Of a stretch of 64,000 nt of DNA, positions 34,177-53,053 are shown piece after piece. A program made the translations under genes and the position numbers. Position 1 is the first letter of the stretch; every line of letters starts with the position of its first letter. The DNA comes from Candidatus Auribacterota bacterium (GTDB lineage Bacteria; Auribacterota; Tritonobacteria; UBA1439). The stretch covers positions 1 through 64,000 of the forward strand of contig JAPLCW010000174.1 in NCBI GenBank assembly GCA_026392015.1. Direction: 5' to 3'. The notes under the pieces were generated by a model. That model was given only the letters and a program-made list of their open reading frames with translations, had not been told where the DNA came from and ran no database searches.

Positions 34177-34215
34177 CTTCCGGTATTCTGCAGTGATATA
34201 TCTGGTAACCACTCA

Positions 34216-34372
34216 GATAGTCAGGATGCAGAAGCCAGGAGCCAGAATGGAAAAGCAAGAATCCAGAATACAGAATTAAGAATAACGGCATTTCAAGGAA
34301 ACGTTTATCTCCTGTCTCCTGAATTCTGACTCCTGAATTCTGACTCCTGAATTCTGGCTTCTAAATTCTTGC
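34216..34372. repeat. MITE-like palindromic element, copy B (inverted relative to copy A)
   Basis: Same core GGAAACGTTTATCTCCT with CTGAATTCTGACTCCTG heptamer arms. Confidence 0.8.
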
Positions 34373-34469
34373 TCCTCGCAGTCACGACATCGCCCTATTT
34401 ATTGAGTGAAAATTGTGGCTTCTGCGCTTATAATCTCTAGATATCAACTTTTTAGGGCGGTGATATACT

Positions 34470-35660
34470 ATGCCGGTTGGAAATATCGCATTTGTCGTTC
34501 CCCGCTACGGCGTGCAATCCGCCGGGGGGGCGGAGGTTCTGGCGCAGAGAGTGGCGGAGAAGCTTGCCGCTGCCGGCGCTCATATCTCCGTCCTCACCAC
34601 CTGCGCGCGCGACCATTTTACCTGGGCGAACTACTTCTCGCCCGGGCAGGAATTTATCAACGGCGTGTCCGTGCACCGTTTTCCCGCGGACGAGCGGAAA
34701 CCGGATTCAGAGTTCATATCCATCCAGGGACGCATTGCGCAGGGGATGAAGGTCAGCCGGGATGAGGAAGAGAAATGGATCAGGGGGAGCGTCCACAGCC
34801 GCGCACTCTATGAGTTCATCAGCACAAATCGCGGTTATTTTGATGCGTTCCTCTTTATCCCCTATCTCTTCGGAACGACCTGGGCGGGGAGTGCGCTCGC
34901 GCCCGAAAAAGCAATCCTCATACCCTGTCTCCACGATGAGCCGTACGCGCGCCTCAGCATATTCAGGGAGATGTTCGGCCGCTGCCGGGGACTGATCTTC
35001 AACAGCGAGCCGGAGCGTGACCTCGCCCTGCAGCTTTACGGGTTGCACGCCGATACGGTTGCCGTCGGAGGGATGGGGCTCGAACCGCGGGATCAGTATC
35101 GCCCCGAGCGATTCAGGAAGAAGTTCCGCCTTGCGCAACCATTCATACTCTACGCGGGGAGGCGCGAGGAAGGGAAGAACACTCCTCTCCTGATCGAGTA
35201 TTTCCGGACATTCAAGAAACAGAACCGGAACGATCTCGCGCTCGTGCTCCTGGGAACAGGCGATGTGACGATCCCTGAAGATGCCGCGGGGGAGATCCAT
35301 GACCTGGGTTACATCGCGGAGGATCTCAAGCACGATGCCTACGCCGCGAGCCTGGCGCTCTGCCAGCCATCCGTCAACGAGAGTTTCTCCATCGTGCTCA
35401 TGGAGGCCTGGCTCGCGGGAGCCGCGGCCCTGGCGCACGGGGGATGCGCAGTCACCGCGCGGCACTGCCTCGATTCCAACGGCGGCCTCCTCTTCCGGGA
35501 CTACTATACTTTTGAGGAGTGCCTCCTCTACCTTATGGAGAATAAGGGACTCCGCGAGCGCCTCGCTGCCGGCGGGAGAGCCTACGTGCGGCGGGAATAC
35601 TCATGGGATGCCGTGCTGAAACGTTACGCGCACGCATTCGACCAATTCAAACTCGCATAA
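34470..35660 (+). CDS. Family 4 glycosyltransferase (GT-B)
   Basis: C-terminal GT1/GT4 fold with an E-x7-E-like region (SVNESFSIVLMEAWLAGAAALAHGG). Confidence 0.8.
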   Translation: MPVGNIAFVVPRYGVQSAGGAEVLAQRVAEKLAAAGAHISVLTTCARDHFTWANYFSPGQEFINGVSVHRFPADERKPDSEFISIQGRIAQGMKVSRDEEEKWIRGSVHSRALYEFISTNRGYFDAFLFIPYLFGTTWAGSALAPEKAILIPCLHDEPYARLSIFREMFGRCRGLIFNSEPERDLALQLYGLHADTVAVGGMGLEPRDQYRPERFRKKFRLAQPFILYAGRREEGKNTPLLIEYFRTFKKQNRNDLALVLLGTGDVTIPEDAAGEIHDLGYIAEDLKHDAYAASLALCQPSVNESFSIVLMEAWLAGAAALAHGGCAVTARHCLDSNGGLLFRDYYTFEECLLYLMENKGLRERLAAGGRAYVRREYSWDAVLKRYAHAFDQFKLA

Positions 35661-35760
35661 AAATCAACCGGTTACTCCCCGGGTTCGGGAATAGCCCACC
35701 CTGCAGGCGGGACTTTAGGCCCGCATGCCGGGCACATGAGAGGATGCGCGTGCGGTAGCC

Positions 35761-36855
35761 ATGAGAATCAACCAGCTTCTACCCGGGTTTGGAAGCGGTG
35801 ACGCGATCAGCAACTTCGCGCTCCAGCTCCAGTCGATTCTGCGCTCCTGGGGGCATGAATCCGTGATCTACTGCCCGCTCCGGCACGTCGGCCCCACGGA
35901 ACAGCATCTGTGCCTGGACTACCGGCTGCTCCCAGATCCCCTGGCGGGGGATATCACCCTCTACCATTATTCGGTCAGCTCCGAACTCACCGAACTTTTC
36001 AAGCAGTTGAACGGCCGGCGCCTCCTCTTCTACCACAATATCACTCCGCACCATTATTTCGAGGGCATTCACGCCGGGAAGGCCCTGGCACTCCGGCGAG
36101 GGCGCGAGGAGCTCCGCACCCTCGCCGACGCATCAGACCTTGCCGTCGGCGCCTCTGAGTTCAGCAGGCGCGAGTTGGAGGAAAACGGATTCACCCGCAC
36201 CGCCACCCTCCCCTACATACTGGATCGCCAGGCTCTCTCCACCCCTCCCAACCGTTCGGTGATGAGACAGTACGGGGACGGGGCGACGAATCTGCTCTTT
36301 GTCGGGCGCGTGGCGCCGAACAAGAGGGTGGAGGATCTGATAAAGATATTCCATTTCTACAGAAACACGATCGCGGCGCGCTCCCGCCTCCTCATCGCCG
36401 GATCGCTCATGGGCGTGGACCGCTACACACACCATCTGAATAGCATGATCAGGCTGCTCGATCTCCCCGATGTGGTTTTCATCAACCACGTCGTGGGCCC
36501 CGAGCTCTACGCCCTCTACCACAGCGCCCACGTTTTTCTTTGCATGAGCGAGCACGAGGGCTTCTGCATGCCCCTGCTGGAGGCGATGCACTTCCGTCTC
36601 CCCGTCATCGCGTATGCGGCGGGGGCGGTTCCCGAGACGCTCGGCGGCGCCGGCGTGCTCGTGAAGGAGAAAGATCACGCGGCAATCGCGGAACTGGCGG
36701 ATGCCGTGTGCCGCGACCGGGCGCTCAGGGAATCGATTATCCGGAAACAGCTGGCGCGCCTCGATGCCTTCTCTCCCGAAGCGATCGCAAGTAGGCTCGG
36801 GGAGCTCCTGTCGCCCTGGCTGACGCAAGGAGGGGAGGATGCCGCGCATGCCTAA
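35761..36855 (+). CDS. Family 4 glycosyltransferase
   Basis: FVGRVAPNKRVEDLI...SEHEGFCMPLLEAMHFRLPVIAYAAGAVPETLG. Confidence 0.8.
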   Translation: MRINQLLPGFGSGDAISNFALQLQSILRSWGHESVIYCPLRHVGPTEQHLCLDYRLLPDPLAGDITLYHYSVSSELTELFKQLNGRRLLFYHNITPHHYFEGIHAGKALALRRGREELRTLADASDLAVGASEFSRRELEENGFTRTATLPYILDRQALSTPPNRSVMRQYGDGATNLLFVGRVAPNKRVEDLIKIFHFYRNTIAARSRLLIAGSLMGVDRYTHHLNSMIRLLDLPDVVFINHVVGPELYALYHSAHVFLCMSEHEGFCMPLLEAMHFRLPVIAYAAGAVPETLGGAGVLVKEKDHAAIAELADAVCRDRALRESIIRKQLARLDAFSPEAIASRLGELLSPWLTQGGEDAAHA

Positions 36856-37930
36856 GCCGTCCATTCACCAGATCGTCGCCGGATTCGTCGAGGGGGACGC
36901 GATCAGCAATCTCGCCGTACAGCTGCGGGAAATATTCAGGAACTGGGGATATGCGTCGGAAATCTTCTGCCCCCTGCGGCACATCGCCCCCAAGATGCGC
37001 AATATCGCTCTGGACCTCAGGGAACATAGAATCCGCAGCGCGCCGGGGGATATCATGGTGTTTCATTTTTCCATAGGGTCGGAGACGGTGGACTATTTCA
37101 AGAAACTCCCGGGGACAAAGATCCTCGTCTACCACAATATCACCCCGGGGCACTACTATCGCTCCATCTACGACGAGCGTGAGCTTCTCCTCACCAAGGG
37201 CAGGGAGGAGCTGAAGAACCTTGCCATGCTCCCCGATCTCTCGCTCGCCGATTCCGCATTCAACGCGCGGGAGCTCATGGACGCGGGATTCAAAAACGTG
37301 CATGTGATGCCGATCCTCCTCAGCCTGGAGCACCTGAACCGCCGTCCGGACAGGGGCATCCTCGCGCGCTACCGCGACGGGGTGAAGAACATCCTTTTCG
37401 TGGGAAGGGTCGTCCCGAACAAGAGGTTTGAGGATCTGATCAAGGCTCTCTACGCATATCGCGCGGCGGGACATCCCGAGGCGCGGCTTATTCTCGTAGG
37501 CGCTCATCTGGGCCTCGAACGCTATCTCGCCCTGCTCAGGAACCTCGTACGGGAACTCAAGCTCGACAACGTCACGTTTACCAATCATGTGAGGATCGAG
37601 CAGCTCTGCGCATACTATAGGGTTGCCGACCTCTTCCTCTGCATGAGCGAGCACGAGGGCTTCTGCATCCCCCTGCTCGAGGCGATGCATTTCGACATCC
37701 CCATTCTGGCATACCGCGCGGGGGCCGTACCGGAGACTCTCGGGGAAAGCGGCGTCCTGGTGAACGAGAAGGACTTCCCGCGGATCGCAGAGATGATGGA
37801 TATGCTCCTCCACAACCCCGCGCTGCGGGAGGGGATCGTGAGACGGCAGAGGGAGAGGCTCAAGGATTTTGCCCCCGACCGCCTCGAGGACCGGTTGAAA
37901 GGATATCTGAAACAATGGCTCACGCTCTGA
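36839..37930 (+). CDS. Family 4 glycosyltransferase (tandem paralog of 35761-36855)
   Basis: About 55% identity to the upstream GT4 (FVGRVVPNKRFEDLI...SEHEGFCIPLLEAMHFDIPILAYRAGAVPETLG). The starts overlap. Confidence 0.8.
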   Translation: MPRMPKPSIHQIVAGFVEGDAISNLAVQLREIFRNWGYASEIFCPLRHIAPKMRNIALDLREHRIRSAPGDIMVFHFSIGSETVDYFKKLPGTKILVYHNITPGHYYRSIYDERELLLTKGREELKNLAMLPDLSLADSAFNARELMDAGFKNVHVMPILLSLEHLNRRPDRGILARYRDGVKNILFVGRVVPNKRFEDLIKALYAYRAAGHPEARLILVGAHLGLERYLALLRNLVRELKLDNVTFTNHVRIEQLCAYYRVADLFLCMSEHEGFCIPLLEAMHFDIPILAYRAGAVPETLGESGVLVNEKDFPRIAEMMDMLLHNPALREGIVRRQRERLKDFAPDRLEDRLKGYLKQWLTL

Positions 37931-40428
37931 AGATACTGCTCTCCTTTCCCTTGCTCTTCCTGGCCCCGGGATTCTTCATTCTCCATTTTTTAAAGTCGCG
38001 CGGAAGAATGCCCGCATCGCTCGACTCCCGCTTCCCCGAACGGCTCTACTTCACCGTGCTCACGAGCGTCGCGGTCACCTCGTGGATCGCGCTCATCCTC
38101 GCGCAGATCGGCTTCTTTTCGCTGCCGGCGGTGTGCGCCATCCTTCTCGCCATCTCCCTCGCGTTCGGAATTCTTTCAAGAGGCGCCCCGTGGACGTTCC
38201 CCAGGCCGCCCGCCGGCTCCTGCGTTATTGCCGCGCTCTTTGCGTGCATCGGACTTTTCCTCTACACGCCGCCGTACGAATATGTGCTCGGGATATGGGA
38301 CCCCGGTGTCTATGTGAATGCGGGCGCTCACCTCGCGCGGACCGGCTCCATCATCATCCACGACCGCATCCTTCCGCAGATACCCGCCCCCGATCGCGAG
38401 CTCTTCTACGACACGCGGTTCTACCCGCAGCGCTACGAGGGGATGGCGATCGCAGACGCGGAAAAAGGGATCATCTCGCCGCACTTCTACCACCTCTATA
38501 TAGTCTGGATAGGACTGTTTCACGCGATCGGCGGGCTGAAATTCTCTCTTCTGGTGAATACCGTCTTCGGACTCCTCTCCCTCTCCGCGTTCTTCCTTCT
38601 CGGCAAGGAGCTCGCCGGGAAAAGAACAGCGTTCCTTGCGGCGCTCCTCCTCCTGTTCAGCGCGGCTCAGACATGGGCGGTGAGGTTTCCCACCTCGGAG
38701 ATCCTCGCCCAGTTTTTTCTCCTCTCCTGGCTCCTCTGCCTCCTCCGTCCTCGGGATGACACGAGCAACTTCTGGACTCTCCTCGGGGGAGTCTGCTTTG
38801 CAGAGGCGCTACTCACGGTGTTCACCGCAGTCACCCTTGTACCCCTCTTCATTGTGGTCATCTTCTGGCGCACCTGGGATGGATCGCGCAGGGGCTATCT
38901 GCTTTCGCTCATCCCGCTTGGGGGCGGCCTGCTCCATCTCGCCATCCAGGATGCGACGGTCTGCCGGTCGTATGCCGCGCTTCAGTTTCAGATCCTCCGC
39001 TCCGAGGGCCTTTCCCCCGCGTTGCTCCTCGCATCCGCGCTTATCCTCCTGCTCTCCCTCCTCTCCGCGCACAGATGGATGAAGCGGCTCCAGACTCGCC
39101 TTCGCCGCATCTTCGGAACGGCGGCATTCGGGGCGCTCCTCGGCTCCGTTCTGATCGGTCTCTTCGCATTCGCGTACTACCTGCGGCCGCTCCTCAGCGG
39201 CGCAGCGGACGTGCGCAATCTGCGTGAGCTCGGCTGGTTCCTCTATCCGCTCGCGGCGGGGAAATTTTATTTCCCCGCAGGTCTTTACCTAGCCCTCGCC
39301 GGAGTCCTGCTTTTCATCCGCGGACGATCAGACGAGAAATGGGGGGCGTTTATCTTCATTTCGCTCATCGCCTCCGTCATCCTGTTGCACAGGAAGATGA
39401 TCTTTCCTTCCTATCCATGGGCGATGCGGCGCTACATGCCGCTTGTCTATCCCTCGCTCATTTTCTTCACGGCGTTCGCTCTGGCGCGGCTCTCCGGGCG
39501 AAAGGGAATAGGGACTCCGGCGGCGGTTGCGCTCGCGGCCCTCCTTATCCTCCCCACGCAGCGCACCTACGGGCGGTATGTGCGCCCCACGGAATTCTCC
39601 GGGACCATAGATTTCCTCGGGCGACTTGCCGGCCGGCTGGACCGCGGCGGCGTCTATATCTGCGAGGGGAGCGGGATGGCCGCGCCGCTCGACTGCGTCT
39701 ACGGACTGGATATGCTCCATCTCCGCGCCCAGACACCCGAGAAATGCCGCGGGGTGGAGCGCGTGATCGGACAGCTCATCGGCACGGGGCGGAAGGTATA
39801 CTACATTTCGCGCGACGGCTGGCCCATTTCCCGCACCCTCAATTTCATTCCCCTCTTTTCCCTGCCGCTCAGGACGGATCATCTCGACTATACCATCGGG
39901 GGCTTCTCGGGGAGGCGTGTTCCTCTTGAGATTGATGCGCGGGTATTTCGCGTTGCGCCGCTCGGCGGCTCCCCCGAGGCGGATGGGGAGAGCAGGACAA
40001 CTGACATCGGTGAGGATTGCTTCGGCCTCATCGGAGGATTTGAGGAGATGATGCCTCTTTCGGGGAAGGAAGGCGGGAAAAGGGTCAAACGCTGGGGCCG
40101 GTGGACGCGGGGGGAGGCGGAGGTCGTGATCCCGACATTCGGATCGCGCAACGACCTTTCCCTTATTCTCAGGGCGTCGGCAGGGAGAGAGAGGCCGGCG
40201 GCCCAGGTGCCGGTTAAAATCTCTGTCGATGGAAAGGAAGTCGGGATCCTGGACATAGGGAGGGCGTGGGGCGAGTATGGGGTCACGTTCCCGGCATCGG
40301 CCCTTCCTGGCAATAGTGACAGGGCAGTCCTGAAAATATCCTGCCCTGTCTGGAATCCACCCGGGAATAATCCGGGGGGAGTGGGGATATGCATCGACTG
40401 GATCCGGGTCGCGCCGTTCAAAAAATAA
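37915..40428 (+). CDS. Large polytopic membrane protein (837 aa), probably a glycan-processing or lipid-linked-sugar transferase; family unresolved
   Basis: About 13 hydrophobic helices in the first 600 aa, then a soluble C-terminal domain. It sits in the GT cluster and overlaps the preceding GT4 stop. Confidence 0.55.
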   Translation: MAHALKILLSFPLLFLAPGFFILHFLKSRGRMPASLDSRFPERLYFTVLTSVAVTSWIALILAQIGFFSLPAVCAILLAISLAFGILSRGAPWTFPRPPAGSCVIAALFACIGLFLYTPPYEYVLGIWDPGVYVNAGAHLARTGSIIIHDRILPQIPAPDRELFYDTRFYPQRYEGMAIADAEKGIISPHFYHLYIVWIGLFHAIGGLKFSLLVNTVFGLLSLSAFFLLGKELAGKRTAFLAALLLLFSAAQTWAVRFPTSEILAQFFLLSWLLCLLRPRDDTSNFWTLLGGVCFAEALLTVFTAVTLVPLFIVVIFWRTWDGSRRGYLLSLIPLGGGLLHLAIQDATVCRSYAALQFQILRSEGLSPALLLASALILLLSLLSAHRWMKRLQTRLRRIFGTAAFGALLGSVLIGLFAFAYYLRPLLSGAADVRNLRELGWFLYPLAAGKFYFPAGLYLALAGVLLFIRGRSDEKWGAFIFISLIASVILLHRKMIFPSYPWAMRRYMPLVYPSLIFFTAFALARLSGRKGIGTPAAVALAALLILPTQRTYGRYVRPTEFSGTIDFLGRLAGRLDRGGVYICEGSGMAAPLDCVYGLDMLHLRAQTPEKCRGVERVIGQLIGTGRKVYYISRDGWPISRTLNFIPLFSLPLRTDHLDYTIGGFSGRRVPLEIDARVFRVAPLGGSPEADGESRTTDIGEDCFGLIGGFEEMMPLSGKEGGKRVKRWGRWTRGEAEVVIPTFGSRNDLSLILRASAGRERPAAQVPVKISVDGKEVGILDIGRAWGEYGVTFPASALPGNSDRAVLKISCPVWNPPGNNPGGVGICIDWIRVAPFKK

Positions 40429-41656: not shown

Positions 41657-42059
41657 GCCCCCGCCCGATCCGGTTATATCAACTATTAATGTTTTTAACC
41701 GCGGATTATGCTGATTACGCGGATTCTTGTTTGGGCTCTTGCAGGATTTTTGTGAATAAGTAGATGGGAGGACGCTACATAACATCCTATTCGCAATTAA
41801 GATATTGCTGAGCCGCCATCCCGTATGCCCTCTCCCCTCCGAAGGGGAGAGGCATGGTGAGGGGTGAATCCGCATGGACCACCTTCACACCCCCACCCTC
41901 GCCCTCCCCCTTCGGAGGGGGAGGGGTATGGCCCACGTCCTTTCTTCACAAAAATCTGGCTTGAGCCCTTGTTTGTAATCCGCCCAATCCGCGAAATCCG
42001 CGGTTTCATGCCTTGATCTGCTGAAATTACCTATGTATATTTCTGAATAATAACCCGGA

Positions 42060-45000
42060 CTAGACGCTCACCTTTTCGATGGTGCGGCGGAGGCGGCGGC
42101 AGAACTCCTCGCACATCATGATCGAAACCCCGGGGTACTCCCTGAGCATGTCCCTGAACTCCTGCTTGTAGATTGCGAGGGCCCTCACATCGCCGTCGGC
42201 AATCGCACTCGCCGAGCGGGGAGAGTCGTCAAAGAGCGCCATTTCACCGAAGTAGTCGTTCTCCTTGAGGGTCGCAAGGTGGACACGCTCCCCTGCCGCT
42301 CCTGACACGATGCGCACAACGCCGGAGACAATGATGTACATGCTGTCTCCCCGCTCCCCTTCTTTCACGATCTCGTCGCCTACGTGGAACGACTCTTCAC
42401 GCGATATAGACGCGATCGCAAGCAGCTCCTTGAAGTGCAGGTGCGAAAAGATCGGAATCCCTTTTAGCGTCAGAACCTTTTCCATGAGGTCTTCCACGGA
42501 TTGTCCTCCTTTTACCTTCAACCCCTCCTCCACCTTCGATGCCATCTCCCGCAACCGGGCAGTGAGCGCCGGACTTCCTTTTTCTCGCGCTTCGGCTATA
42601 CACATCAGCGCACACATTTTTTCAGCGGTGTTCTCCGATTTCAACATCTCCTCGAGCACGGCGCCGAGATCCATCGCCTCGGCGCCGTAGTATCCCTTCC
42701 CCGCGGCACATTTCATCTCGATCGGCAGATCCTCGAGCAGCGGGAGCAGGCGGCGGGCGAGATAAGGGGTGAGCACATCCTCAAGCGCCTCGAGGGCGTG
42801 CTCCCGTACCGACTCCTCGCGATCGTGGTAGCGTTCGAGAATAAACTGCATACGGCTGCCCTTGAGGAGCAGGCCGAGTGCGCGAAAAATCTCATAGATC
42901 GCCTCGCCAAGTCTATTCTGGAGCAGCAACGAGACAACCTCGCAGGACCTCCCCGCCGGAAGCTCATCGAGCACCCGCATCCGCGCAACCGTCCGGTACC
43001 CCTCGCGCACCTTGTCATCGATGAAAGCCAGCAGTGTCTGCTCCTTGACGCCGAGCTGGTCGAGGATCCCGATCAACGCCGTCCGCGTGAAAAGCCCCGC
43101 GGCGGGAAGCGCTTCCGTGAGCAGCGGGATCGCCCCCTCGCCCTGGCGGACAATGAGCGATCGCGCGGCCGCGCGCACCGCCCCGTCCTCATCGCCGAGC
43201 AAACGAATCACACGCCGGGCCGCCCCCGGCGTGCCGAGGGCATCGAGTCCCTCGACAGCCTTGAGCCGGACAATCGCCTCCCGGTCGTTGAGGAGCCCCT
43301 CCCACATATCGGCGGCTGCATCGACGCCGAGCTTCCCGACCGCGAGCGCGCACTCCGCCCTCACCGCAACCTCCCGGGAATCGAGGAGCGGATAGAGCTG
43401 CGGCAGGACCTCACGATCTCCCGTCTCTCCAATAAAATACAGCGCGCTGCATACCTCGTCTGCCTCATGCGAATGAAGCTTCGAGAGAGCCCACGCCTCG
43501 TCAACATTCTCGCCCACCGCCTTTAGCCCGAGGATCGATTCCGCGACGAGCTGGGGGTTCTCACTCTTCGCCCATTTTCGAAAGAGGTCCCGCCCCCTCT
43601 CCGGAGCAACCCTCCGCACAATGCGCGCCACCTCTGTCCGCGCGGCCTCATGGACCCTGTCGGCGACGCAGAGCATAGCCTCCGCAACCTCCCCCGGAGG
43701 CGCCGCCCCGACGATTCTGAGCATCTCGATCTGTACCGCTCCCTCGCGGCGGGGCAGCTCGGCGCAGACGAGCTCCGGCCACCCGGGAATCCCTGACTGG
43801 CTCAGGAGCCTCGCCGCCATGAGGGCGGTCCCGGCATCCTCGCTCGAGAGGCCTTTCGAGAGCAGTCTCACGCTCTCACGCGTCATGAGCGAGCAGAGGT
43901 CGCGGCTCTCGAGTTCGGCGAAGTTCACATGTTTCTCGCTCAGGCTGCGGTAGAGGATCGCGGAGTAGGAGCGCCGCAGGAAATAGGTGGAAAGAACCCA
44001 TAGCAGCGCAAAGACCGGTCCCACAAGCGTGAGGCTATGCGCGGGGATGAAGAGGATCAGCACCCATAGCATCCCGCTCCCCGCCAGCTCGCCCAGTCTC
44101 CGGACAGCCCCCTGCACCAGCGCGCTCACCCTGCCGCGGAACTCCATCGGGATGATGTTGTAGAGCATCTGGCATCCGGGCTTGTAGAATGCCGCATCGA
44201 TCACCTCAAGGCTCGCATCTCCCACAATCGCCGTGGGCATCCGGAAGTGGAGGCAGAGAGCCACAAAGCTCAGAAAGTATCCGCAGGGATACGTGAAAAG
44301 GACATTGACGATCCCGTAGCGCCTGAAGACACTGCCCGCGCACACGATCTGAAAGATAAGGACGAGGAGATTGTACGAGCCGTTGTATATGCCGAAAAAC
44401 CCGAGGAGCGACGACTCCGAACGAAAGGTCTGATTTGCGAGGTATTTGAATATATACTCGAACAGCGGCCCCAGGATGCCGGGGAGGAGGGCAAGGAGCA
44501 TGAGGTAGTTCAGAAGCGAGGAGCCGCGGATCTGGAAGAGCTCCCTCCTGAAGAACTTGCCGAGGGAGGCGATCGTAACTTCCTCCTTGGGAGAGTAGCT
44601 GAGAGGCGAGAGTCGGGCAACCTGGCGGCGGCCGAAGCCTATGAGCAGGTAGGAGATGAGCATTCCCGCCGCGGAGAAGAGCACCACATTATCCGTTCCC
44701 GTGACCCGGGCGATCTGCGCGCTGAGCATGCTCCCGGAGATTGTGCCCAAAACCGCCCCTCCGCCAATGAGTGGGAAGAGCCTGCGCGCCTTGCGCGTCG
44801 AGTAGATATCAGATGCGAGGGTCCAGAAGACGATGAAAAAGACATACTTCATCTGCTTGACCGCGATGTAGGTCACCGGATACGCCAATGGCAGGCCTGA
44901 GAGGATCAGGAGCCTCAACCCCGCGAGGGTGACTGCATACAGGAGCAGGAGCTGTGAGACGAGGCGAGTGCGCGCGCAACGGTCCACCACGCGATGCAGC

Positions 45001-45209
45001 AGAAGCAGGAGAACCAGGAATACCAGGGAATTTAAAAAAAACGTCGTCGGCAGATATCGGACCCCGTAGCGCTTTAAGAACACAGTGGCAGAAAAATTCT
45101 CATTGAGGATCTGGCAGAACTGGAAGAGCGCGATGGTCCCCATCATGAGGAGCAAGAGAGGCTGCTCCTGGCGCCGTGTCCGGAGCACTCGTTCCAGCGA
45201 GAGCTTCAT
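42060..45209 (-). CDS. Fusion protein: 12-TM MFS/TLC-like transporter, HEAT (PBS-lyase-type) repeats, C-terminal cyclic-nucleotide-binding domain
   Basis: N-terminal ~450 aa are polytopic. The middle has HEAT-like repeats (SREVAVRAECALAVGKLG..., DREAIVRLKAVEGLDALG, EDGAVRAAARSLI). The C-terminus has the cNMP-binding signature (GDSMYIIVSGVVRI...FGEMALFDDSPRSASAIA). Confidence 0.75.
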   Translation of the reverse strand: MKLSLERVLRTRRQEQPLLLLMMGTIALFQFCQILNENFSATVFLKRYGVRYLPTTFFLNSLVFLVLLLLLHRVVDRCARTRLVSQLLLLYAVTLAGLRLLILSGLPLAYPVTYIAVKQMKYVFFIVFWTLASDIYSTRKARRLFPLIGGGAVLGTISGSMLSAQIARVTGTDNVVLFSAAGMLISYLLIGFGRRQVARLSPLSYSPKEEVTIASLGKFFRRELFQIRGSSLLNYLMLLALLPGILGPLFEYIFKYLANQTFRSESSLLGFFGIYNGSYNLLVLIFQIVCAGSVFRRYGIVNVLFTYPCGYFLSFVALCLHFRMPTAIVGDASLEVIDAAFYKPGCQMLYNIIPMEFRGRVSALVQGAVRRLGELAGSGMLWVLILFIPAHSLTLVGPVFALLWVLSTYFLRRSYSAILYRSLSEKHVNFAELESRDLCSLMTRESVRLLSKGLSSEDAGTALMAARLLSQSGIPGWPELVCAELPRREGAVQIEMLRIVGAAPPGEVAEAMLCVADRVHEAARTEVARIVRRVAPERGRDLFRKWAKSENPQLVAESILGLKAVGENVDEAWALSKLHSHEADEVCSALYFIGETGDREVLPQLYPLLDSREVAVRAECALAVGKLGVDAAADMWEGLLNDREAIVRLKAVEGLDALGTPGAARRVIRLLGDEDGAVRAAARSLIVRQGEGAIPLLTEALPAAGLFTRTALIGILDQLGVKEQTLLAFIDDKVREGYRTVARMRVLDELPAGRSCEVVSLLLQNRLGEAIYEIFRALGLLLKGSRMQFILERYHDREESVREHALEALEDVLTPYLARRLLPLLEDLPIEMKCAAGKGYYGAEAMDLGAVLEEMLKSENTAEKMCALMCIAEAREKGSPALTARLREMASKVEEGLKVKGGQSVEDLMEKVLTLKGIPIFSHLHFKELLAIASISREESFHVGDEIVKEGERGDSMYIIVSGVVRIVSGAAGERVHLATLKENDYFGEMALFDDSPRSASAIADGDVRALAIYKQEFRDMLREYPGVSIMMCEEFCRRLRRTIEKVSV

Positions 45210-46594
45210 CGGGAGCTTTCCCCCTCCGCACGCGCTCCATTGTCCCCGGCGGGCGCGATCCCGAACTCCCGGAGAATGCTGTGCCGCCGATCGAGCAGAG
45301 TCCGGAAGATATAGTCCGAATCCTCCTTCCTCGTATACGACGCGAGATTAACCACTGTGCGGATCTGATCTTCGCTGTATCTCGCCAGCAGGCGCGCCGC
45401 CCAGAGGCCGTCATCCCTCGTCATGGCCATCCATGCCATGTTCGGATAATTCGCCCTGTAGCAGAGCGCGCTCACGTTGCTGTCGAAGAAGCCTACCGCC
45501 TCGCTGTACGTGGTAGTGTTCTCCTGGTACGGCCTCCGGATCAGTCCCAGGAGCCTGAGCGGGCGCTTCACCGGCCAGGAGAAGAACTCTCCGAAATCGA
45601 CATAGTGTTCCCAGCCATCCCTGGGCTCCTTGGTGCGCACATTCCAGCTTCCGAGCGAACCCCCGAAATCGAAGATGTAGTATCGTACGAGGGGCACCCC
45701 CTCCACATCCACCACACTGATTCCCGTATTATGGTCCACCCAATCGGTGTTGTGGATCCATGCCCCGAAAACCTTGGTGGCCCTGATCTCGCGGCGATCC
45801 CTGAAGGCGTGGTATGACCAGTGCCCCTTGTAGCCCTCGACGAGCCTGGTGACGACCCCGCGCTTGCCGTCGAATTCCGGATTGCCCGTCCCCTGGATTG
45901 TAATGATCGCGCTCAGGGGGACATAGTAGCCCGCCATACGCACCAGGGTGCCCCCGACCACCTCGGCGCTCGTCTCCTGCTCCTGCATCATCGGCGGATC
46001 GATGATGCAGATGTAGTCCCATCCCCGCTCATCCTTGGCAAGAAATCCCTCGGACTTCCCCTCTCCCTTCTTCCCGGTGATCGTGAGCTTCCCATGCGGT
46101 TTCACGAGCGTGTCCGCCTCGATGAGCTCGGCGGGAGTAATCGATGCGATGTCGGTGTTGATGAAGAATGCCGAGTCGGGAACACCCCCGTCCCGTGTCA
46201 GATCCCCCGCTTGTTTCGGAAGACGCACAAACCTGCGCACCATCCTCCGCGGATCGATCACACGAAGAAAATCCCAGTAGATGCTGTTGGCGAACCAGGA
46301 CCCGTCAATAAACCAATCCCCGAATATGTCCTCCGTCTCTCCCCTCTTCCCGATAAAGGTCCTGTAGTCGATCTTATCCCTTACGAGATCCTGGCTCAGC
46401 TTCCCGCAGCGCTCCCGGAGTTCCGCGCGCCGCCCGGAATCGGTGGATGCGGCGACTTCGCTCTTGCACTTCGAGAATCCGGCGACGCGCTTCATGATTG
46501 CATCGACTTTTTTGTCGGGGTCCCACGCGGCATGGAGACTCCCCACCACTATCATCGCCAGTACGATAACTATTCCTGTATCTCTCCGCTTCAT
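45206..46594 (-). CDS. Hypothetical secreted protein (462 aa)
   Basis: Signal peptide MKRRDTGIVIVLAMIVVGSLHA. Its 3' end overlaps the downstream gene by 4 nt. Confidence 0.55.
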   Translation of the reverse strand: MKRRDTGIVIVLAMIVVGSLHAAWDPDKKVDAIMKRVAGFSKCKSEVAASTDSGRRAELRERCGKLSQDLVRDKIDYRTFIGKRGETEDIFGDWFIDGSWFANSIYWDFLRVIDPRRMVRRFVRLPKQAGDLTRDGGVPDSAFFINTDIASITPAELIEADTLVKPHGKLTITGKKGEGKSEGFLAKDERGWDYICIIDPPMMQEQETSAEVVGGTLVRMAGYYVPLSAIITIQGTGNPEFDGKRGVVTRLVEGYKGHWSYHAFRDRREIRATKVFGAWIHNTDWVDHNTGISVVDVEGVPLVRYYIFDFGGSLGSWNVRTKEPRDGWEHYVDFGEFFSWPVKRPLRLLGLIRRPYQENTTTYSEAVGFFDSNVSALCYRANYPNMAWMAMTRDDGLWAARLLARYSEDQIRTVVNLASYTRKEDSDYIFRTLLDRRHSILREFGIAPAGDNGARAEGESSR

Positions 46595-46621
46595 GATTAT
46601 CGTTTCCTCCCCTGGGTGTGA

Positions 46622-47542
46622 TTAGCCCTCGCCGGCGTTCGCCGCCGGGTCCTGACTGAAAAATTGCGCAAGCGCGCCATAGAGCTCCGCATGCTTTTCC
46701 TTGAGTTCGACCGGGCGTTCGAAAAAATACTCCACGGAGACCGCGAAGAACTCCGCCTCATTCTCGGCTGCGTAGAAACAGAGGAGCGACCGGTTGCTCT
46801 CCACCTTTTCCATCTCCCGATGGATCAGTGTGAGCCAGGCCCCGCTCGCCGCCGGATTGAGCATTCGGGGCAGGCCGGTTGCCTGCCCCGCCCGAATATC
46901 CATCAAGTGCGCGAACTCATGCAGCACTACGTTGTCGCCTCTCCATGGCTCGCGCCAGCCGTCGAGGAGCGCCTCACGCGAAATAATGATCGGCCCCTGC
47001 CCATGGGCCTTGCCGAGAAACGGTCCCCGGCGCGTGAATCTGAACTCCTCATCGAAACTACCCGGGTACACGAGGATCGTGTGGCCGCGCGGGAGTTCCC
47101 ACTCTGGCTGCCCGTTCAGGAGCACCGCTGCCCCCGCTGCGATAAGCACCCTGACCTCATCGGTGACCTCGGCGCCCCCCACCCCCTCGATCCTTCGCTC
47201 GGCGAGGAAGTAGCGCACATCATCCTCAAAGCGCCTGCGGTGCCGGTCATCGAGACCGCGGTAGAATCGCACCTGCTCGCGCAGAATCTTCCTCCATTCG
47301 CCGGGGAACTCCTCCCGATGCAGCCGCAACCGCCTCATGGGGCGCCTCAGCGCCATCCATGTGTACAGCGCCAGGACAGGAACCGCACTGAGAGCCCATG
47401 CCGGATGCAGTGATCCCGAAAAAACCACCGCGACGCTGAACGCAATCACCGCGACAAGCGCGCCGTGGAGAAAAATGTCCGCTGTAGGTATCGCACGCAT
47501 GAGAACTACTGTGTAAAGTGTATAATCAGCTGTAAGCGGCAA
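46622..47542 (-). CDS. Zinc metallopeptidase, M90 (MtfA-like) family, with N-terminal TM helices
   Basis: HEXXH motif in NVVLHEFAHLMD and surrounding MtfA-like sequence (GWREPWRGD...EFFAVSVEYFFERP). Confidence 0.6.
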   Translation of the reverse strand: MPLTADYTLYTVVLMRAIPTADIFLHGALVAVIAFSVAVVFSGSLHPAWALSAVPVLALYTWMALRRPMRRLRLHREEFPGEWRKILREQVRFYRGLDDRHRRRFEDDVRYFLAERRIEGVGGAEVTDEVRVLIAAGAAVLLNGQPEWELPRGHTILVYPGSFDEEFRFTRRGPFLGKAHGQGPIIISREALLDGWREPWRGDNVVLHEFAHLMDIRAGQATGLPRMLNPAASGAWLTLIHREMEKVESNRSLLCFYAAENEAEFFAVSVEYFFERPVELKEKHAELYGALAQFFSQDPAANAGEG

Positions 47543-47706
47543 GCTGTAAGCAATAAGTATTTTGTTTGTAGCTTATGGCTTATCACTTACCGCTTTCCAT
47601 TGTGTAGCAGTATGCAGTTTTCCTGGCTACTAACCACTGCCCCGCTGCTTCTGTTTCTTTGTAGCGTTATGCAGTTTCCCTAACCCCTAGCTACTAACTA
47701 CTGCAG

Positions 47707-49386
47707 TTAAAGTCTGCCCGACTTGAGGATTCCGAATATGAGCCAGAGGCCCAGGAGCCCCGCGAGCAGGAACCCCGCCAGCCCGAAGAGCGGGAGGCCG
47801 AGGATGTGCGGCCCCTTGTCGCTCAAGGTCACGAGCGACGATCCGATGATCAGGGCGGCGACGATGAGGCCGAAGGAAAGCCTGTTACTCGACTTATCCA
47901 TTTCGGCGATGAAGGTGTCGAGTCCGCGGTGCTGGAATTCGAGCTTGAACCGCCCCTTCGCGGCCTTCCGTAACATGAGCTGGAGATCGCCGGGGAGCTC
48001 CCGCAGCAGGCCGAACAGGTCACCCGCCATTTCCTCGATTTTCCACTTGATTTGCGCCGGCCTGAGTTTTGAGAGAATGTACCCACGCGCATACTCCCGC
48101 GCCACTGCGATCATGTCGAACTCCGGATCGAGTATGCGCCCCACACCCTCCATATTGACGACCGCCTTTCCCAGGAGCACGAGATCCGGGGGCATTTTCA
48201 ACTGGTAGCGCGACGCGATGGAGATCGTCTCGTTGAGTATGTGGCCGAGGTTGATCTCCTTGAGGGGGCGACCCGAGTAGCCCTCGATGATGTAGGCGAG
48301 GTCGGATTTGAAAGACTCCTCATCGATCTCCTCCTCGGAGGTGCGCAGCCTGAGCAGGTGGTGCGCGGCCTTCGCGGCGTCCCACTCGGCGATCGCGAGG
48401 AGCATGCCGGCGAGTTCCTCGAGGTGCTCGCTGCTGAGCCGTCCCACCATGCCGAAATCGATTAGCGCGATGCGCCCGTCCGGAAGGACGGAGAAATTGC
48501 CCGGGTGCGGATCCGCGTGGAAAAACTTGTCCACAAAGACCTGCTTGAGGAAGGCACGCGCGCCGTTGAGCGCAACCTTCTTCACGTCGATGTCCATTTC
48601 CTGCAACCGGTCGTGATCGTCAACACGTATCCCCTCGATGTCCTCCATGACGAGCACCCGGCTGGAGGAGAAGTCCCAGAAGACCTTCGGAATGCATATC
48701 TCCTTCTCATCAGACAAGTTGCGGCGGAACCTCTCCGCATTCCTCGCCTCCACCAGGAAATCGATCTCCCTCGCCATCATCTTGCGGAAGAACCTCACGA
48801 GATCCGCCGGGCAGAACGCCCTGCTCTCGTGGATGTAGCGCTCGAGCCCGTTTGCGAGCGCCTCGAGAATATTGAGATCGGTGGCGATCTGTTTCTGGAT
48901 TCCGGGGCGCTGCACCTTCACCACCACTTTCTCCCCGGAGCGGAGGACCGCCCGGTGAACCTGGGCCATCGAGGCTGCGGCCATAGGCTCGGGATCGAAT
49001 TCAGCGAACATCTCCTCGGGCCGGCGGCCAAGCTCAGCAATGATGATTTCGCGCGCGGTATTGGTCGGAAAGGGCGCCGCGCGATCCTGAAGCTTTGTGA
49101 GCTCGCGCACGACATCCGCGGGAATCAGGTCGACTCTGGTGCTGAGAATCTGGCCGAACTTGACGAAGGTGGGACCGAGCTCCTCAAATGCAAGCCGTAA
49201 GCGCTCGCCGATGTTGAGCGGTTTGGCGGACTCGCGGTGTTTCAGGAATCTGTTGACGAGAGGAAGGTGGTCTGCAAGCTTGAGTTCGTACACAAAGTAG
49301 CCGAAGCCATGACGGAAGAGTACCGCCATGACTTGGCGGAACCTGACGAGCTCGTCGCGGCGCCTGATCAGAGACAGATATCTCAT
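47707..49386 (-). CDS. UbiB/ABC1-family atypical protein kinase
   Basis: LGPTFVKFGQILSTRVDLIP, AAASMAQVH and VVKVQRPGI motifs; FHADPHPGN catalytic loop; C-terminal TM helices. Confidence 0.85.
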   Translation of the reverse strand: MRYLSLIRRRDELVRFRQVMAVLFRHGFGYFVYELKLADHLPLVNRFLKHRESAKPLNIGERLRLAFEELGPTFVKFGQILSTRVDLIPADVVRELTKLQDRAAPFPTNTAREIIIAELGRRPEEMFAEFDPEPMAAASMAQVHRAVLRSGEKVVVKVQRPGIQKQIATDLNILEALANGLERYIHESRAFCPADLVRFFRKMMAREIDFLVEARNAERFRRNLSDEKEICIPKVFWDFSSSRVLVMEDIEGIRVDDHDRLQEMDIDVKKVALNGARAFLKQVFVDKFFHADPHPGNFSVLPDGRIALIDFGMVGRLSSEHLEELAGMLLAIAEWDAAKAAHHLLRLRTSEEEIDEESFKSDLAYIIEGYSGRPLKEINLGHILNETISIASRYQLKMPPDLVLLGKAVVNMEGVGRILDPEFDMIAVAREYARGYILSKLRPAQIKWKIEEMAGDLFGLLRELPGDLQLMLRKAAKGRFKLEFQHRGLDTFIAEMDKSSNRLSFGLIVAALIIGSSLVTLSDKGPHILGLPLFGLAGFLLAGLLGLWLIFGILKSGRL

Positions 49387-49427
49387 TGAGCCCTACGCGC
49401 ACCCTTCCCCGCCGGGGGGGACAACAG

Positions 49428-49730
49428 CTATTTCTTCGCCTTTAACTTCCTCTCGAGGCTCCTCAGGCGCTTCTCCATCTCCTCCATTTTGTCAGAGGTG
49501 GCAAGATGCATCTTTCCGAGAAGTGACGAGAAACCTTTCTCCAGTGTCTCCTCCAGGTCCTTTCGCCGCTGCCGGGCGGACCGTGAGAACGATTCCATGA
49601 TCTTCTTCGCCTCGGCCTTGCTCACCTCACCCTTCTTCTCGAGCTCCTGGATGGCATTGGCAAGCGTCTCCCGGGTGAATTCAGCCGCCCCCATCCCGAT
49701 GAGAAGACCTTTCTTGAGCAACTCCTTCAT
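49428..49730 (-). CDS. Phasin-like / PHA-granule-associated family small protein (tentative)
   Basis: 100-aa charged helical protein, LLIGMGAAEFTRETLANAIQELEKKGE. Confidence 0.5.
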   Translation of the reverse strand: MKELLKKGLLIGMGAAEFTRETLANAIQELEKKGEVSKAEAKKIMESFSRSARQRRKDLEETLEKGFSSLLGKMHLATSDKMEEMEKRLRSLERKLKAKK

Positions 49731-51229: not shown

Positions 51230-53053
51230 TTAAGCACACTTTCGAAAGATATTTACGACGCTATCGGGAAAGATCGGATCATCGATTAGCTTTCTGATTT
51301 TTGTCGGGACACGTTCGGGGGTTATTTGAACATTGCGTAATTCCTCGCGCGCGAGTGCAACGTCAAGGTCGGCGAAGCGCTCTTCTAATGTGGAATAGCC
51401 GTTGAGCAAGATCTGTGTGTAGTGGGGATTTTCCAGGTTTCTTACCAAAGGGGTATCAGCAAGCATGGCGTGCAGAGTTTTGCCCATGGATGTATTTCCG
51501 CTTTTTCTGCGGTTGCCACGCCTCAGATCGCGGAAGAAGCGTTCCATGATGTTATTGGTCCGCTGCGGTTGAATGATGATTCTCCCCTGAGGGGTTTCGA
51601 CGATGATCGGATCGGCAAAGAGTTTTTGCCAGTAGTGATCAATTTGAGCGATCATCTTTTGGTAAGCCGGATTGGTTGCATACTGCGGAGCGGACACTAC
51701 TCGCGCGCGGAATTTGCGAACCGCTTTCTCGATGCCACCCATATCGGCGTTGAGGTCGCCCGAATTCAGTCCTTCGGACCCGTGCGGTGGGGCGATGCGC
51801 ATGGCCTTGCGCAATTGATCAAAGACCTTGATCTTCGCATCAATCTGATCGAGCGTGCGTTGCAGGCTCGTATCGAAGAAAACCGGCTTCAGTTCACAGG
51901 CAAGTTTGAACAAGGGCTTATTGTCCTGCCATTCGCCGCGCAGGTGGATGTCTTTGATCTGTTCGATCTGTGTGTAAATGGTGCGTAGTCGGTTGGCAAA
52001 GACCACATGCGGACGATCAAACGGAAAGCCATATCCCCGTCCCTGATGCTTACCGGCCAGCGCCCATTGAATGAGACTGTACGCGCTCAGAATGGGGACC
52101 TCTTCGATGCAGGAACCGGCGGGGGCCTGGTTCGTAATGCGCTGAATAAAGGCGTCCAGTAACGGCGGGTTCTGATCCATTACCATCTTCAGCCGTCTGG
52201 CATGATACCGCAATTTACCCGTGATCCCGTGCCGGCGCAAACGATTTCGAATCAGGTCGTATTCCTGCCCGAAAAGGTCTTGACCGATATCCCGCAGGAA
52301 ATGATAGTGGCACACGAAATCAGGGGTGTTTGGGAAGACGATTTTGATCGCGCGCAGAATTCCGCCGCCCATGTCGTGGATTAAAGCCAGGGGCGAACCG
52401 AAGCGCGATTTCATCTCCTTGATGAAAGGAATAATCTGCTCGGCTTTTTCCGAAGGCAGCTTCACATTGCCCAGCACAATCTCCGAAAGGGAGTCCAGTC
52501 CACTCATCAGCACGGGCGCGCCGCCCTCACAGTTTCCATCCAAATGGAAGATAGAGCCTCCTTTTTCATGCATCGCCTCCCGAATTTTCGGCGTGCACTG
52601 GCGATGGGACAGCGCCAGATACACGATGAACTTCTTCCCCAAATACTCTACTTCGCTGGGGCTGATCGAAACGTTGCGCTCCCGTAACGCCTCGACGATT
52701 TCCCCGACAGTGCGATGGCTTCGGAAAAGCGCCAGGCCGACAAAAACGATTACGTCATAACCGAAACGGCATCGCTCAGGCGCCAGGCGTGCCAGTTCAT
52801 TCGAAGCGTAGACCGCGTGGTTCTCACAGTCTGCGCACTGCCGCAGCGTTTCGTGTGCGGTAAACTCGCCAATGGACATCGTGGTCGCCGTCTTCATCTG
52901 TGTCTTTCGCACCGTTAGCCGCGTCGCGCACACTGGACATGTGGTCTGCTCCGGCTCAAAACGCAACGTCGGCCGTTCCGCAAACAGAACCGGCGCTGTG
53001 TTCTCCTTCCCCAACCTCTCCATGTAAGTGTTCAGCGTGCGTAAAGTCTTCAT
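51230..53053 (-). CDS. Transposase (607 aa) with N-terminal zinc-ribbon-like Cys pairs; family unresolved (TNNxxE signature, ISL3/IS66-like)
   Basis: CPVCATRL...CADCENH near the N-terminus and TNNIMERFFRDLRRGNRRKSG near the C-terminus. It lies between the terminal inverted repeats. Confidence 0.7.
   Translation of the reverse strand: MKTLRTLNTYMERLGKENTAPVLFAERPTLRFEPEQTTCPVCATRLTVRKTQMKTATTMSIGEFTAHETLRQCADCENHAVYASNELARLAPERCRFGYDVIVFVGLALFRSHRTVGEIVEALRERNVSISPSEVEYLGKKFIVYLALSHRQCTPKIREAMHEKGGSIFHLDGNCEGGAPVLMSGLDSLSEIVLGNVKLPSEKAEQIIPFIKEMKSRFGSPLALIHDMGGGILRAIKIVFPNTPDFVCHYHFLRDIGQDLFGQEYDLIRNRLRRHGITGKLRYHARRLKMVMDQNPPLLDAFIQRITNQAPAGSCIEEVPILSAYSLIQWALAGKHQGRGYGFPFDRPHVVFANRLRTIYTQIEQIKDIHLRGEWQDNKPLFKLACELKPVFFDTSLQRTLDQIDAKIKVFDQLRKAMRIAPPHGSEGLNSGDLNADMGGIEKAVRKFRARVVSAPQYATNPAYQKMIAQIDHYWQKLFADPIIVETPQGRIIIQPQRTNNIMERFFRDLRRGNRRKSGNTSMGKTLHAMLADTPLVRNLENPHYTQILLNGYSTLEERFADLDVALAREELRNVQITPERVPTKIRKLIDDPIFPDSVVNIFRKCA

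Follow-up and report, generated by a model that had tools for sequence, protein, structure and literature searches.

We analyzed a 64,000-nucleotide (nt) stretch of DNA (the window) from contig JAPLCW010000174.1 of Candidatus Auribacterota bacterium (assembly GCA_026392015.1), in which positions 42060-47542 carry a three-gene operon that is specific to Auribacteria and is built around a widely conserved core of two genes, one encoding a kinase-like protein and the other a member of the nucleotide transporter (NTT) family. Three minus-strand open reading frames (ORFs) of 1049, 462, and 306 amino acids (aa) were confirmed in this region. They encode, respectively, a fusion protein that joins an NTT domain, HEAT repeats, and a cNBD (cyclic-nucleotide-binding domain); an exported protein with an atypical kinase fold (here named KIN); and a zinc peptidase of the M90 family. 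We tentatively propose, from sequence and modeled structure, that the carrier would exchange nucleotides, in the simplest case ATP from the cytoplasm for ADP from the periplasm, and would thereby feed the exported kinase-fold enzyme under the control of cyclic nucleotide monophosphates (cNMPs). The fusion protein is not new; our results suggest that what is new is the linkage of an exported kinase-fold protein family to NTT genes and, mostly, also to Omp85 genes. The domain identities, folds, export signals, and gene linkage described below were read from sequence, predicted structure, and gene order in uncultured organisms. The operon comprises:

42060..45209, minus strand: NTT-HEAT-cNBD fusion gene, 1049 aa (Pfam; collinear full-length alignment; protein 100% identical to one from a metagenome-assembled genome, MAG)
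45206..46594, minus strand: KIN gene, exported protein with an atypical kinase fold, 462 aa
45206..45209, minus strand: ATGA overlap of the stop codon of KIN with the start codon of the transporter gene (read from the sequence)
46622..47500, minus strand: M90 (MtfA-like) zinc peptidase gene, 292 aa from the favored ATG (Pfam PF06167, homologue alignment)

Kinase-like and NTT genes are linked in distant phyla

Co-occurrence was surveyed from the kinase side, using 80 metagenome loci (L021-L100) fetched with a broad-family KIN profile (A6), in which ORFs obtained by simple stop-to-stop calling were scored with custom hidden Markov models. Of the loci with 5 kb or more on each side, 12 of 17 contained an NTT-family gene, as did 21 of 29 with a total flank of 8 kb or more; in 15/58 loci, this gene lies directly downstream (<400 nt) of the kinase-like gene. 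NTT-family genes are rare, and the chance of finding one within 8 kb of an arbitrary gene is approximately 1% (an estimate, not a measured control) vs. the approximately 70% observed, which indicates that the kinase-like and NTT genes are functionally coupled. The two genes form a widely conserved core. In addition, a same-strand Omp85 gene is located directly upstream of the kinase-like gene in 53 of the 55 loci with room to show it.

The arrangement of the core varies between lineages. Distant clusters often contain a tandem pair of NTT paralogues, with a separate cNBD gene after the NTT-HEAT gene, as in the order Omp85 - kinase-like - NTT - NTT-HEAT - small cNBD (e.g., L062, 8001-14216; L079, 7938-14288; L097, 8004-14256). 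An Omp85 - kinase-like - NTT-HEAT cluster is found in locus L019 (P0097, a Lys-bearing relative), and in two lineages whose kinase-like proteins lack the usual β3 lysine (P0084 and P0087), the kinase-like gene is directly preceded by a stand-alone NTT gene. Genes encoding Metallophos and PAP2 phosphatases, TPR proteins, and histidine kinases are recurrent neighbors in the distant clusters. The 64-kb window contains a single NTT-family gene and no Omp85-like ORF, the M90 gene filling the position upstream of KIN. No description of the KIN family or of its NTT/Omp85 linkage was found in the papers searchable.

Organization and conservation of the operon in Auribacteria

The coordinates and lengths given for the three genes in a first-pass annotation of this DNA were recovered, all three on the minus strand, and the operon-like packing that it described holds. 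Both the 4-nt overlap (ATGA, 45206-45209) and the 27-nt spacer between the end of the M90 gene and the KIN gene, which contains a GGAGG motif, can be read directly from the sequence. The same ATGA overlap is present in loci L001 and L004 and, judging from it, the KIN and transporter genes are translationally coupled. Coding on the minus strand is backed by tblastn, in which each of the three proteins has matches with 55-70% identity in related genomes. ORFs on the plus strand of this region (e.g., 42501-43526 and 45821-46621) were rejected as shadows of high-GC coding, as conservation tracks the minus-strand frames.

Across four GTDB species genomes and further assemblies of close relatives, the order M90 - kinase-like - NTT-HEAT-cNBD is the same in every Auribacteria-type locus recovered, with 55-70% protein identity; co-occurrence in other genomes, on which the first-pass annotation had staked its proposal of a three-gene module, is therefore observed. 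This proposal stands for Auribacteria, but the unit conserved across phyla, as revealed by the neighborhood survey that the annotation had envisaged, is the kinase-like/NTT pair, with M90 present only in Auribacteria. The trio is found in two upstream contexts, gyrB-gyrA-serS vs. phasin-like-ubiB, and the downstream genes differ too. The M90 and kinase-like genes of locus L004 share a 4-nt overlap. In the window, a UbiB/ABC1 atypical-kinase gene and a gene encoding a 100-aa phasin-related protein (47707-49730, minus strand) are located directly upstream of the trio on the same strand. This pair also precedes the trio in L004/L012 and L014; the 3' end of ubiB lies at the contig edge in L011, and serS takes the place of ubiB in L001.

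Locus L011 (JBAXOY010000102.1) belongs to a MAG labeled "Chlamydiota bacterium" and carries ubiB - M90 - kinase-like - NTT with 60-66% identity to the window (75% for the ubiB fragment). Either this is a misclassified bin or the module is present in a second phylum of the PVC group.

It could be argued that the three genes are neighbors by shared descent in one lineage, with no functional coupling, and that the transporter is a lone cNMP-regulated carrier. The complete trio is indeed restricted to Auribacteria-type genomes, NTT-HEAT-cNBD genes stand alone in other lineages, and consensus promoter and terminator scans gave counts not above those of shuffled sequence and are hence uninformative. 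Against this, the KIN and transporter genes appear coupled in translation, the trio outlives rearrangement of both flanks, and the kinase-like/NTT pairing recurs independently in distant lineages with varied gene orders and NTT architectures. Because of these independent recurrences, we consider it very unlikely that the genes are uncoupled.

A diverged member of the NTT-HEAT-cNBD family

The 1049-aa protein had been read in the first-pass annotation as an MFS/TLC-like transporter fused to HEAT repeats and a cNBD, and Pfam, profile comparisons, and an AlphaFold2 (AF2) model all agree with this architecture, with an NTT-type transporter domain:

43935..45173, minus strand: NTT/TLC-like transporter domain with 12 transmembrane helices, aa 13-425 (AF2, Foldseek, hhalign)
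42462..43880, minus strand: HEAT/α-solenoid domain, predicted to be cytoplasmic, aa 444-916 (Pfam HEAT_2 and HEAT; helical repeats in AF2)
42066..42434, minus strand: C-terminal cNBD, aa 926-1048 (Pfam PF00027, PDB, Foldseek)
42204-42251, minus strand: phosphate-binding cassette of the cNBD, FGEMALFDDSPRSASA (FGE...RSA; motif search)

The AF2 model (pLDDT 80) has 12 transmembrane helices arranged as 6+6, a long α-solenoid, and a C-terminal β-roll cNBD. The cNBD matches Pfam cNMP_binding (PF00027, aa 939-1025) with 83.3 bits vs. a cut-off of 27.5 bits (1e-23) and has PDB sequence matches to the CNB domains of PKG and PKA, to which Foldseek also aligns it with a TM-score of 0.8; the FGE...R[ST]A cassette is intact. 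HEAT_2 is matched at 2e-16.

The transporter domain is only 19-24% identical to NTT-HEAT relatives that match the Pfam TLC model (TLC-positive), and the 1049-aa protein does not reach TIGR00769 (18.8 vs. a cut-off of 387). An hhalign comparison of a profile restricted to the Auribacteria clade (A3) with a profile of TLC-positive NTT-HEAT proteins (A4) nevertheless gave a probability of 100% (E 2e-44, 417 columns), and A4 in turn matches the ADP/ATP carrier structures 9j3n (2.4e-37) and 9j3j (3e-30). With the AF2 model as query, the best transporter match in Foldseek, and the sole transporter of NTT fold among the top 50 matches, was 9j3l_A, the ATP-bound AtNTT1 (E 1.8e-7, TM-score 0.68, 482 columns). 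The structures 9j3n, 9j3j, and 9j3l are those of canonical ATP/ADP translocators (Lin et al., 2025, Nature, as cited in PMC13176400). Judging from these comparisons, the transporter domain is very diverged yet homologous to solved ATP/ADP translocators, transitively by profile and directly by predicted fold.

At NCBI, the 1049-aa protein has a 100% identical counterpart in a MAG of Candidatus Aureabacteria (= Auribacterota, PVC group), annotated only as "cyclic nucleotide-binding domain-containing protein." Other relatives are annotated as "Npt1/Npt2 family nucleotide transporter" or "HEAT repeat protein," and one protein of this family (P0066) can be aligned collinearly over the full length of the 1049-aa protein. 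The first-pass annotation could name no characterized counterpart for the combination that it described. In fact, Major, Embley, and Williams (2017, Genome Biol Evol; PMC5381601) had reported NTT-HEAT-cNBD fusions as widespread in bacteria and of unknown function, and a transporter gated by its own CNBD has been solved in the case of SLC9C1. By its alignments, the 1049-aa protein is a member of this known family, and an outlier in it. It has the same three-domain order in a single polypeptide, and the distant kinase-linked clusters show an NTT-HEAT gene followed by a separate small cNBD gene, as in PMC5381601; in contrast, its transporter domain has diverged to below the Pfam TLC threshold, and PMC5381601 makes no mention of an exported kinase-like partner, Omp85, or M90.

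Compared with Npt1 of Chlamydia and NTT1 of Arabidopsis, the protein shares the 12-helix transmembrane fold, whereas the canonical proteins have no HEAT or cNBD tail and serve energy parasitism or plastids, the present host being a free-living diderm. SLC9C1, a sperm Na+/H+ exchanger (PDB 8pdv and others), gives the top overall Foldseek E-values for the 1049-aa model with a global TM-score of ~0.1. Like the fusion protein, it is a secondary transporter with its own C-terminal regulatory CNBD, but it has an unrelated NHE transporter fold and a voltage-sensor domain, and at so low a global TM-score the likeness is one of design, not descent.

Direct control of transport by cNMPs is plausible. 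In locus L101 (6345-10853), an NTT-HEAT-cNBD gene without a kinase-like partner has two class III nucleotidyl cyclase genes (PF00211) as divergent neighbors, an arrangement that fits control of the transporter by a local cNMP signal. Neither a cyclase nor a second cNBD was found in the window.

KIN belongs to a large family of exported kinase-fold proteins

The 462-aa protein had been described in the first-pass annotation as a secreted protein of unknown function. The export signal stands, the signal peptide being borne out by the hydropathy of the N-terminal segment, but the protein also has an atypical kinase fold according to its AF2 model and Foldseek. Its recognizable elements are:

46529..46594, minus strand: signal-peptide-like N-terminal segment, MKRRDTGIVIVLAMIVVGSLHA (hydropathy)
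45605..46102, minus strand: kinase-like core, aa ~165-330 (alignments, residue census)
46043-46072, minus strand: Gly-rich loop with K176 (alignments)
45992-46012, minus strand: β3 strand ICIIDPP, without the usual Lys (alignments)
45728-45757, minus strand: catalytic loop IHNTDWVDHN (alignments)
45656-45673, minus strand: DFG-like motif FDFGGS (alignments)

KIN was identified through a fold search, as sequence searches had given nothing: it has no match in Pfam or NCBIfam, and the KIN family profile retrieved no kinase from PDB sequences, only spurious armadillo-repeat matches. The AF2 model is confident (pLDDT 82, pTM 0.83, 25 homologues) and shows a bilobal kinase fold, for which Foldseek returned kinases exclusively. 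On the basis of this model, KIN is assigned to the atypical protein kinases with a HipA/PI4K-II/CtkA-like fold. The thresholds of the named families HipA_C, HipA_2, and PI3_PI4_kinase were not reached; the only recurrent Pfam signals, which come from other members of the KIN family, are weak and sub-threshold (HipA_2, best 7e-5; HipA_C, best 0.017). KIN further differs from HipA, CtkA, type II PI4-kinases, Fam20, and CotH in that it reaches no Pfam family threshold, its clade has no β3 Lys, and it bears an additional helical region at the N-terminus as well as a helical domain at the C-terminus.

Across 302 KIN-family sequences, the Asp and Asn of the catalytic loop, the Asp of the DFG-like motif, and the Lys of the Gly-rich loop are kept. 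The near clade and >95% of 268 broad-family sequences share D284 and N289 of the catalytic loop and D309 of the DFG-like motif. The β3 position is Ile197 in KIN and Ile or Val in 32/34 near-clade sequences vs. Lys in 246/268 broad-family sequences, and 92% of the broad family retains the classical Lys/Asp/Asn/Asp set of kinases. The conserved K176 of the Gly-rich loop could substitute for the β3 Lys in the clade of the window.

A signal-peptide segment was present at the N-terminus of all 38 KIN-family members inspected, and a lipobox-like motif in 59 of 235 longer members, approximately a quarter, which argues that these are exported kinase-fold proteins. An exhaustive profile search yielded 2,825 KIN-family clusters (50% identity) at E ≤ 1e-3, of which 604 at E ≤ 1e-30; a second search yielded at least 4,387 clusters (90% identity), none of which carries a Pfam domain and all of which are unnamed or listed only as "hypothetical protein." Among the taxa of origin are Acidobacteriota, Latescibacterota, Krumholzibacteria, Zixibacteria, Calditrichota, Gemmatimonadota, and Auribacterota.

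The divergence of both core proteins raises a different reading, in which the carrier would move another cargo, such as a nucleotide cofactor or a phosphorylated metabolite, or act mainly as a sensor, while KIN would perform non-kinase chemistry such as AMPylation or glutamylation, the whole being an envelope-modification or signaling device. The NTT superfamily includes carriers of NAD+ and SAM (PMC5381601), and the transporter domain of the window is, as described above, remote from its TLC-positive relatives and under the Pfam cut-off. The window clade has not only lost the β3 Lys but also gained N282 and D287, two catalytic-loop residues that are invariant in this clade and specific to it, and kinase folds can catalyze AMPylation (SelO) and glutamylation (SidJ). 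On the other hand, the closest fold to the transporter is an ATP-bound ATP/ADP translocator and the great majority of the broad family keeps the classical catalytic set, so that we regard this reading, including the device that it implies, as unlikely.

A lineage-specific M90 peptidase

The third protein matches Peptidase_M90 (PF06167) with 214.5 bits vs. a cut-off of 26.2 bits (2e-63) and carries a HEFAH motif, in agreement with the M90 (MtfA-like) call of the first-pass annotation:

46907..46921, minus strand: HEFAH zinc-binding motif (HEXXH) of the M90 protein (translation)
47348..47476, minus strand: hydrophobic segments at aa 9-27 and 34-51 of the M90 protein, with RRPMRRLRLHR after them (hydropathy scan, sequence)

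The open frame reaches a TTG at 47542 (306 aa), and an ATG at 47500 gives 292 aa. The ATG at 47500 is most likely the start codon, because, with the ORF taken from the TTG, alignments to homologues begin only at residue 14/15 and the M90 genes called in relatives encode 286-296 aa. Following the positive-inside rule, the Arg-rich stretch after the two hydrophobic segments predicts that the N-terminus forms a membrane hairpin and that the peptidase domain lies in the cytoplasm. The protein does not reach the NCBIfam MtfA equivalog NF011939 (65.3 vs. 400 bits) and, by this measure, is an ordinary M90 family member and no MtfA orthologue.

MtfA (Mlc titration factor A) of Escherichia coli acts in a regulatory circuit around the membrane transporter PtsG with the repressor Mlc. 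The M90 protein of the locus resembles it in its strong Pfam match and HEXXH motif, but differs in its predicted N-terminal membrane hairpin, absent from E. coli MtfA, and the locus has no Mlc or phosphotransferase system (PTS) context. M90 as a core component was rejected, since none of the 80 distant kinase-like loci contains an M90 gene; it is an Auribacteria-only, lineage-specific accessory to the two-gene core. By analogy with MtfA, this accessory, possibly regulatory, might bind some regulatory partner or trim it, the HEAT-cNBD tail of the transporter being one candidate.

Upstream spacer and genomic surroundings

The trio is separated from ubiB by the following region, which is likely to contain the promoter and operator of the operon:

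47501..47706, minus strand: AT-rich intergenic region of 206 nt, from ubiB to the M90 gene (sequence and repeats)

This spacer contains a 36-nt direct repeat whose copies, at 47603-47638 and 47660-47695, are 75% identical; AGCTGTAAGC occurs in it twice without mismatch, 14 nt apart. These repeats are possible operator sites. No Rfam family matches the spacer, and scanning 41.5-50 kb with Rfam for an upstream riboswitch gave only sub-threshold miRNA-like matches, attributable to a long hairpin in an element of nested repeats at 41697-42005.

This element of approximately 310 bp is located directly downstream of the transporter gene and consists of nested inverted repeats, with 29-nt arms at 41697-41725 and 41977-42005 and 27-nt arms at 41733-41759 and 41942-41968. 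Within it, 41825-41929 forms a 42-nt imperfect hairpin that holds two perfect GC-rich 10-bp stems. The element could be a terminator cluster or a REP-like or MITE-like repeat.

Elsewhere in the window, an envelope-glycan-type cluster (31360-40428, plus strand) lies on the strand opposite to the trio and encodes a 938-aa β-propeller protein (PQQ_2/BamB-like), three glycosyltransferases of the GT1 family, and a PMT_2-like membrane protein of 837 aa; in L004, too, the trio is flanked by such a glycosyltransferase/PMT_2 set. A 607-aa ORF without a Pfam match (51230-53053, minus strand) has a lower GC content than the neighboring stretches.

A proposed nucleotide supply to an extracytoplasmic kinase-fold protein

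In the mechanism that we tentatively favor, the NTT domain would move nucleotides over the inner membrane, most likely cytoplasmic ATP for periplasmic ADP, and the kinase-fold protein, which would lie outside the cytoplasm and otherwise have no ATP there, would draw on this supply. Binding of cAMP or cGMP to the cNBD, relayed through the HEAT domain, would switch the transporter on or off, so that nucleotides would be released on demand only; a regulatory domain on the carrier would be expected because an uncontrolled loss of ATP would be costly. This model would explain why a kinase-fold protein in an ATP-free compartment is tied to a relative of ATP/ADP exchangers. It would also explain the phosphatase genes in the clusters, as PAP2 and Metallophos proteins would fit an envelope phosphorylation cycle. 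The nucleotide supply proposed here for an extracytoplasmic kinase has a parallel in eukaryotic lumenal kinases, Fam20C among them, which need ATP to be imported into the compartment where they reside. The "uptake" of the first-pass annotation was an assumption, and export or exchange would account better for the linkage with an exported kinase-fold partner. The substrate, the direction of transport, the gating by cNMPs, catalysis by KIN, and the role and topology of the M90 protein are elements of the model that we infer.

Several points weigh against this proposal. The TLC model (PF03219), which the first-pass annotation had named for the transporter, matches weakly, scoring 16.3 bits with the full-length protein and 18.2 bits with its first 440 aa, both under the 21-bit threshold, so that its place in the family stands on whole-domain homology via profiles and on the predicted fold; the clade-only profile (A3) matched no solved NTT in the PDB. 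Since TLC is sub-threshold and this profile misses the solved NTTs, the substrate is not readable from sequence. In KIN, the loss of the β3 Lys may denote a pseudokinase, or else K176 or an altered chemistry may be used instead. The role given to M90, which is drawn by analogy, is pure inference and the weakest part of the model, and periplasmic ATP could leak via porins. Regarding gene linkage, NTT-HEAT-cNBD genes are also found without a nearby kinase-like gene, the Tritonobacter kinase-like gene adjoins a small TPR gene with no M90 or NTT nearby, and the Lys-less kinase-like genes of Gemmatimonadota (L009, L015, L017, and L018) are tandem paralogue pairs with no NTT, M90, or Omp85 gene adjoining. 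No assay of any NTT-HEAT protein was found in the literature searched (PMC5381601 and later), and all characterized NTTs are importers, or exchangers that take up nucleotides (PMC5381601).

This last point also favors nucleotide scavenging, in which the NTT would import external nucleotides and KIN would be a periplasmic helper that binds or processes them, a pseudokinase in this clade; the Omp85-like barrel of other phyla would provide the passage through the outer membrane, and cNMPs would tune uptake to the energy state. Such a role would agree with the speculation of Major et al. (PMC5381601) that cAMP binding to the cNBD matches ATP uptake to the cell's energy needs, with the adjacency of Omp85 genes in nearly all broad-family loci with room to show it, and with the missing β3 Lys, which suits a binding-only function. 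However, MFS-type carriers normally work without periplasmic binding proteins, the near-invariant catalytic-loop Asp/Asn and DFG-like Asp argue for catalysis over mere binding, and Omp85 barrels are known for protein insertion and secretion, not as nucleotide pores. Moreover, the hosts are free-living anaerobes of sediments and lakes with no obvious steady external source of nucleoside triphosphates (PMC9324843). We therefore consider it improbable that the module serves scavenging, whether in its import step or in the parts assigned to Omp85 and cNMPs.

Implications for envelope biology

NTT transporters are textbook markers of energy parasitism, and the free-living NTT-HEAT(-cNBD) branch has been puzzling since 2017. 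The linkage to kinase-like and Omp85 genes offers a concrete and testable answer to this puzzle, namely nucleotide supply to an extracytoplasmic enzyme. It also flags the KIN family, large and with no Pfam model, as probable exported kinases. A more general and rather doubtful form of our proposal is that NTT-HEAT(-cNBD) proteins are ATP-for-ADP exporters under second-messenger control that power a large, hitherto unrecognized exported family of HipA/PI4K-like kinases. If this were true, the site of action of these kinases would be the periplasm or the outer membrane, with an Omp85 barrel as partner in most phyla and M90 in Auribacteria. The bacterial periplasm is generally regarded as ATP-free; ATP export would overturn the assumption that there are no ATP-driven periplasmic kinases and would give the NTT genes of free-living bacteria a function. 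A dedicated ATP supply line gated by a second messenger would add a new principle to envelope biology.

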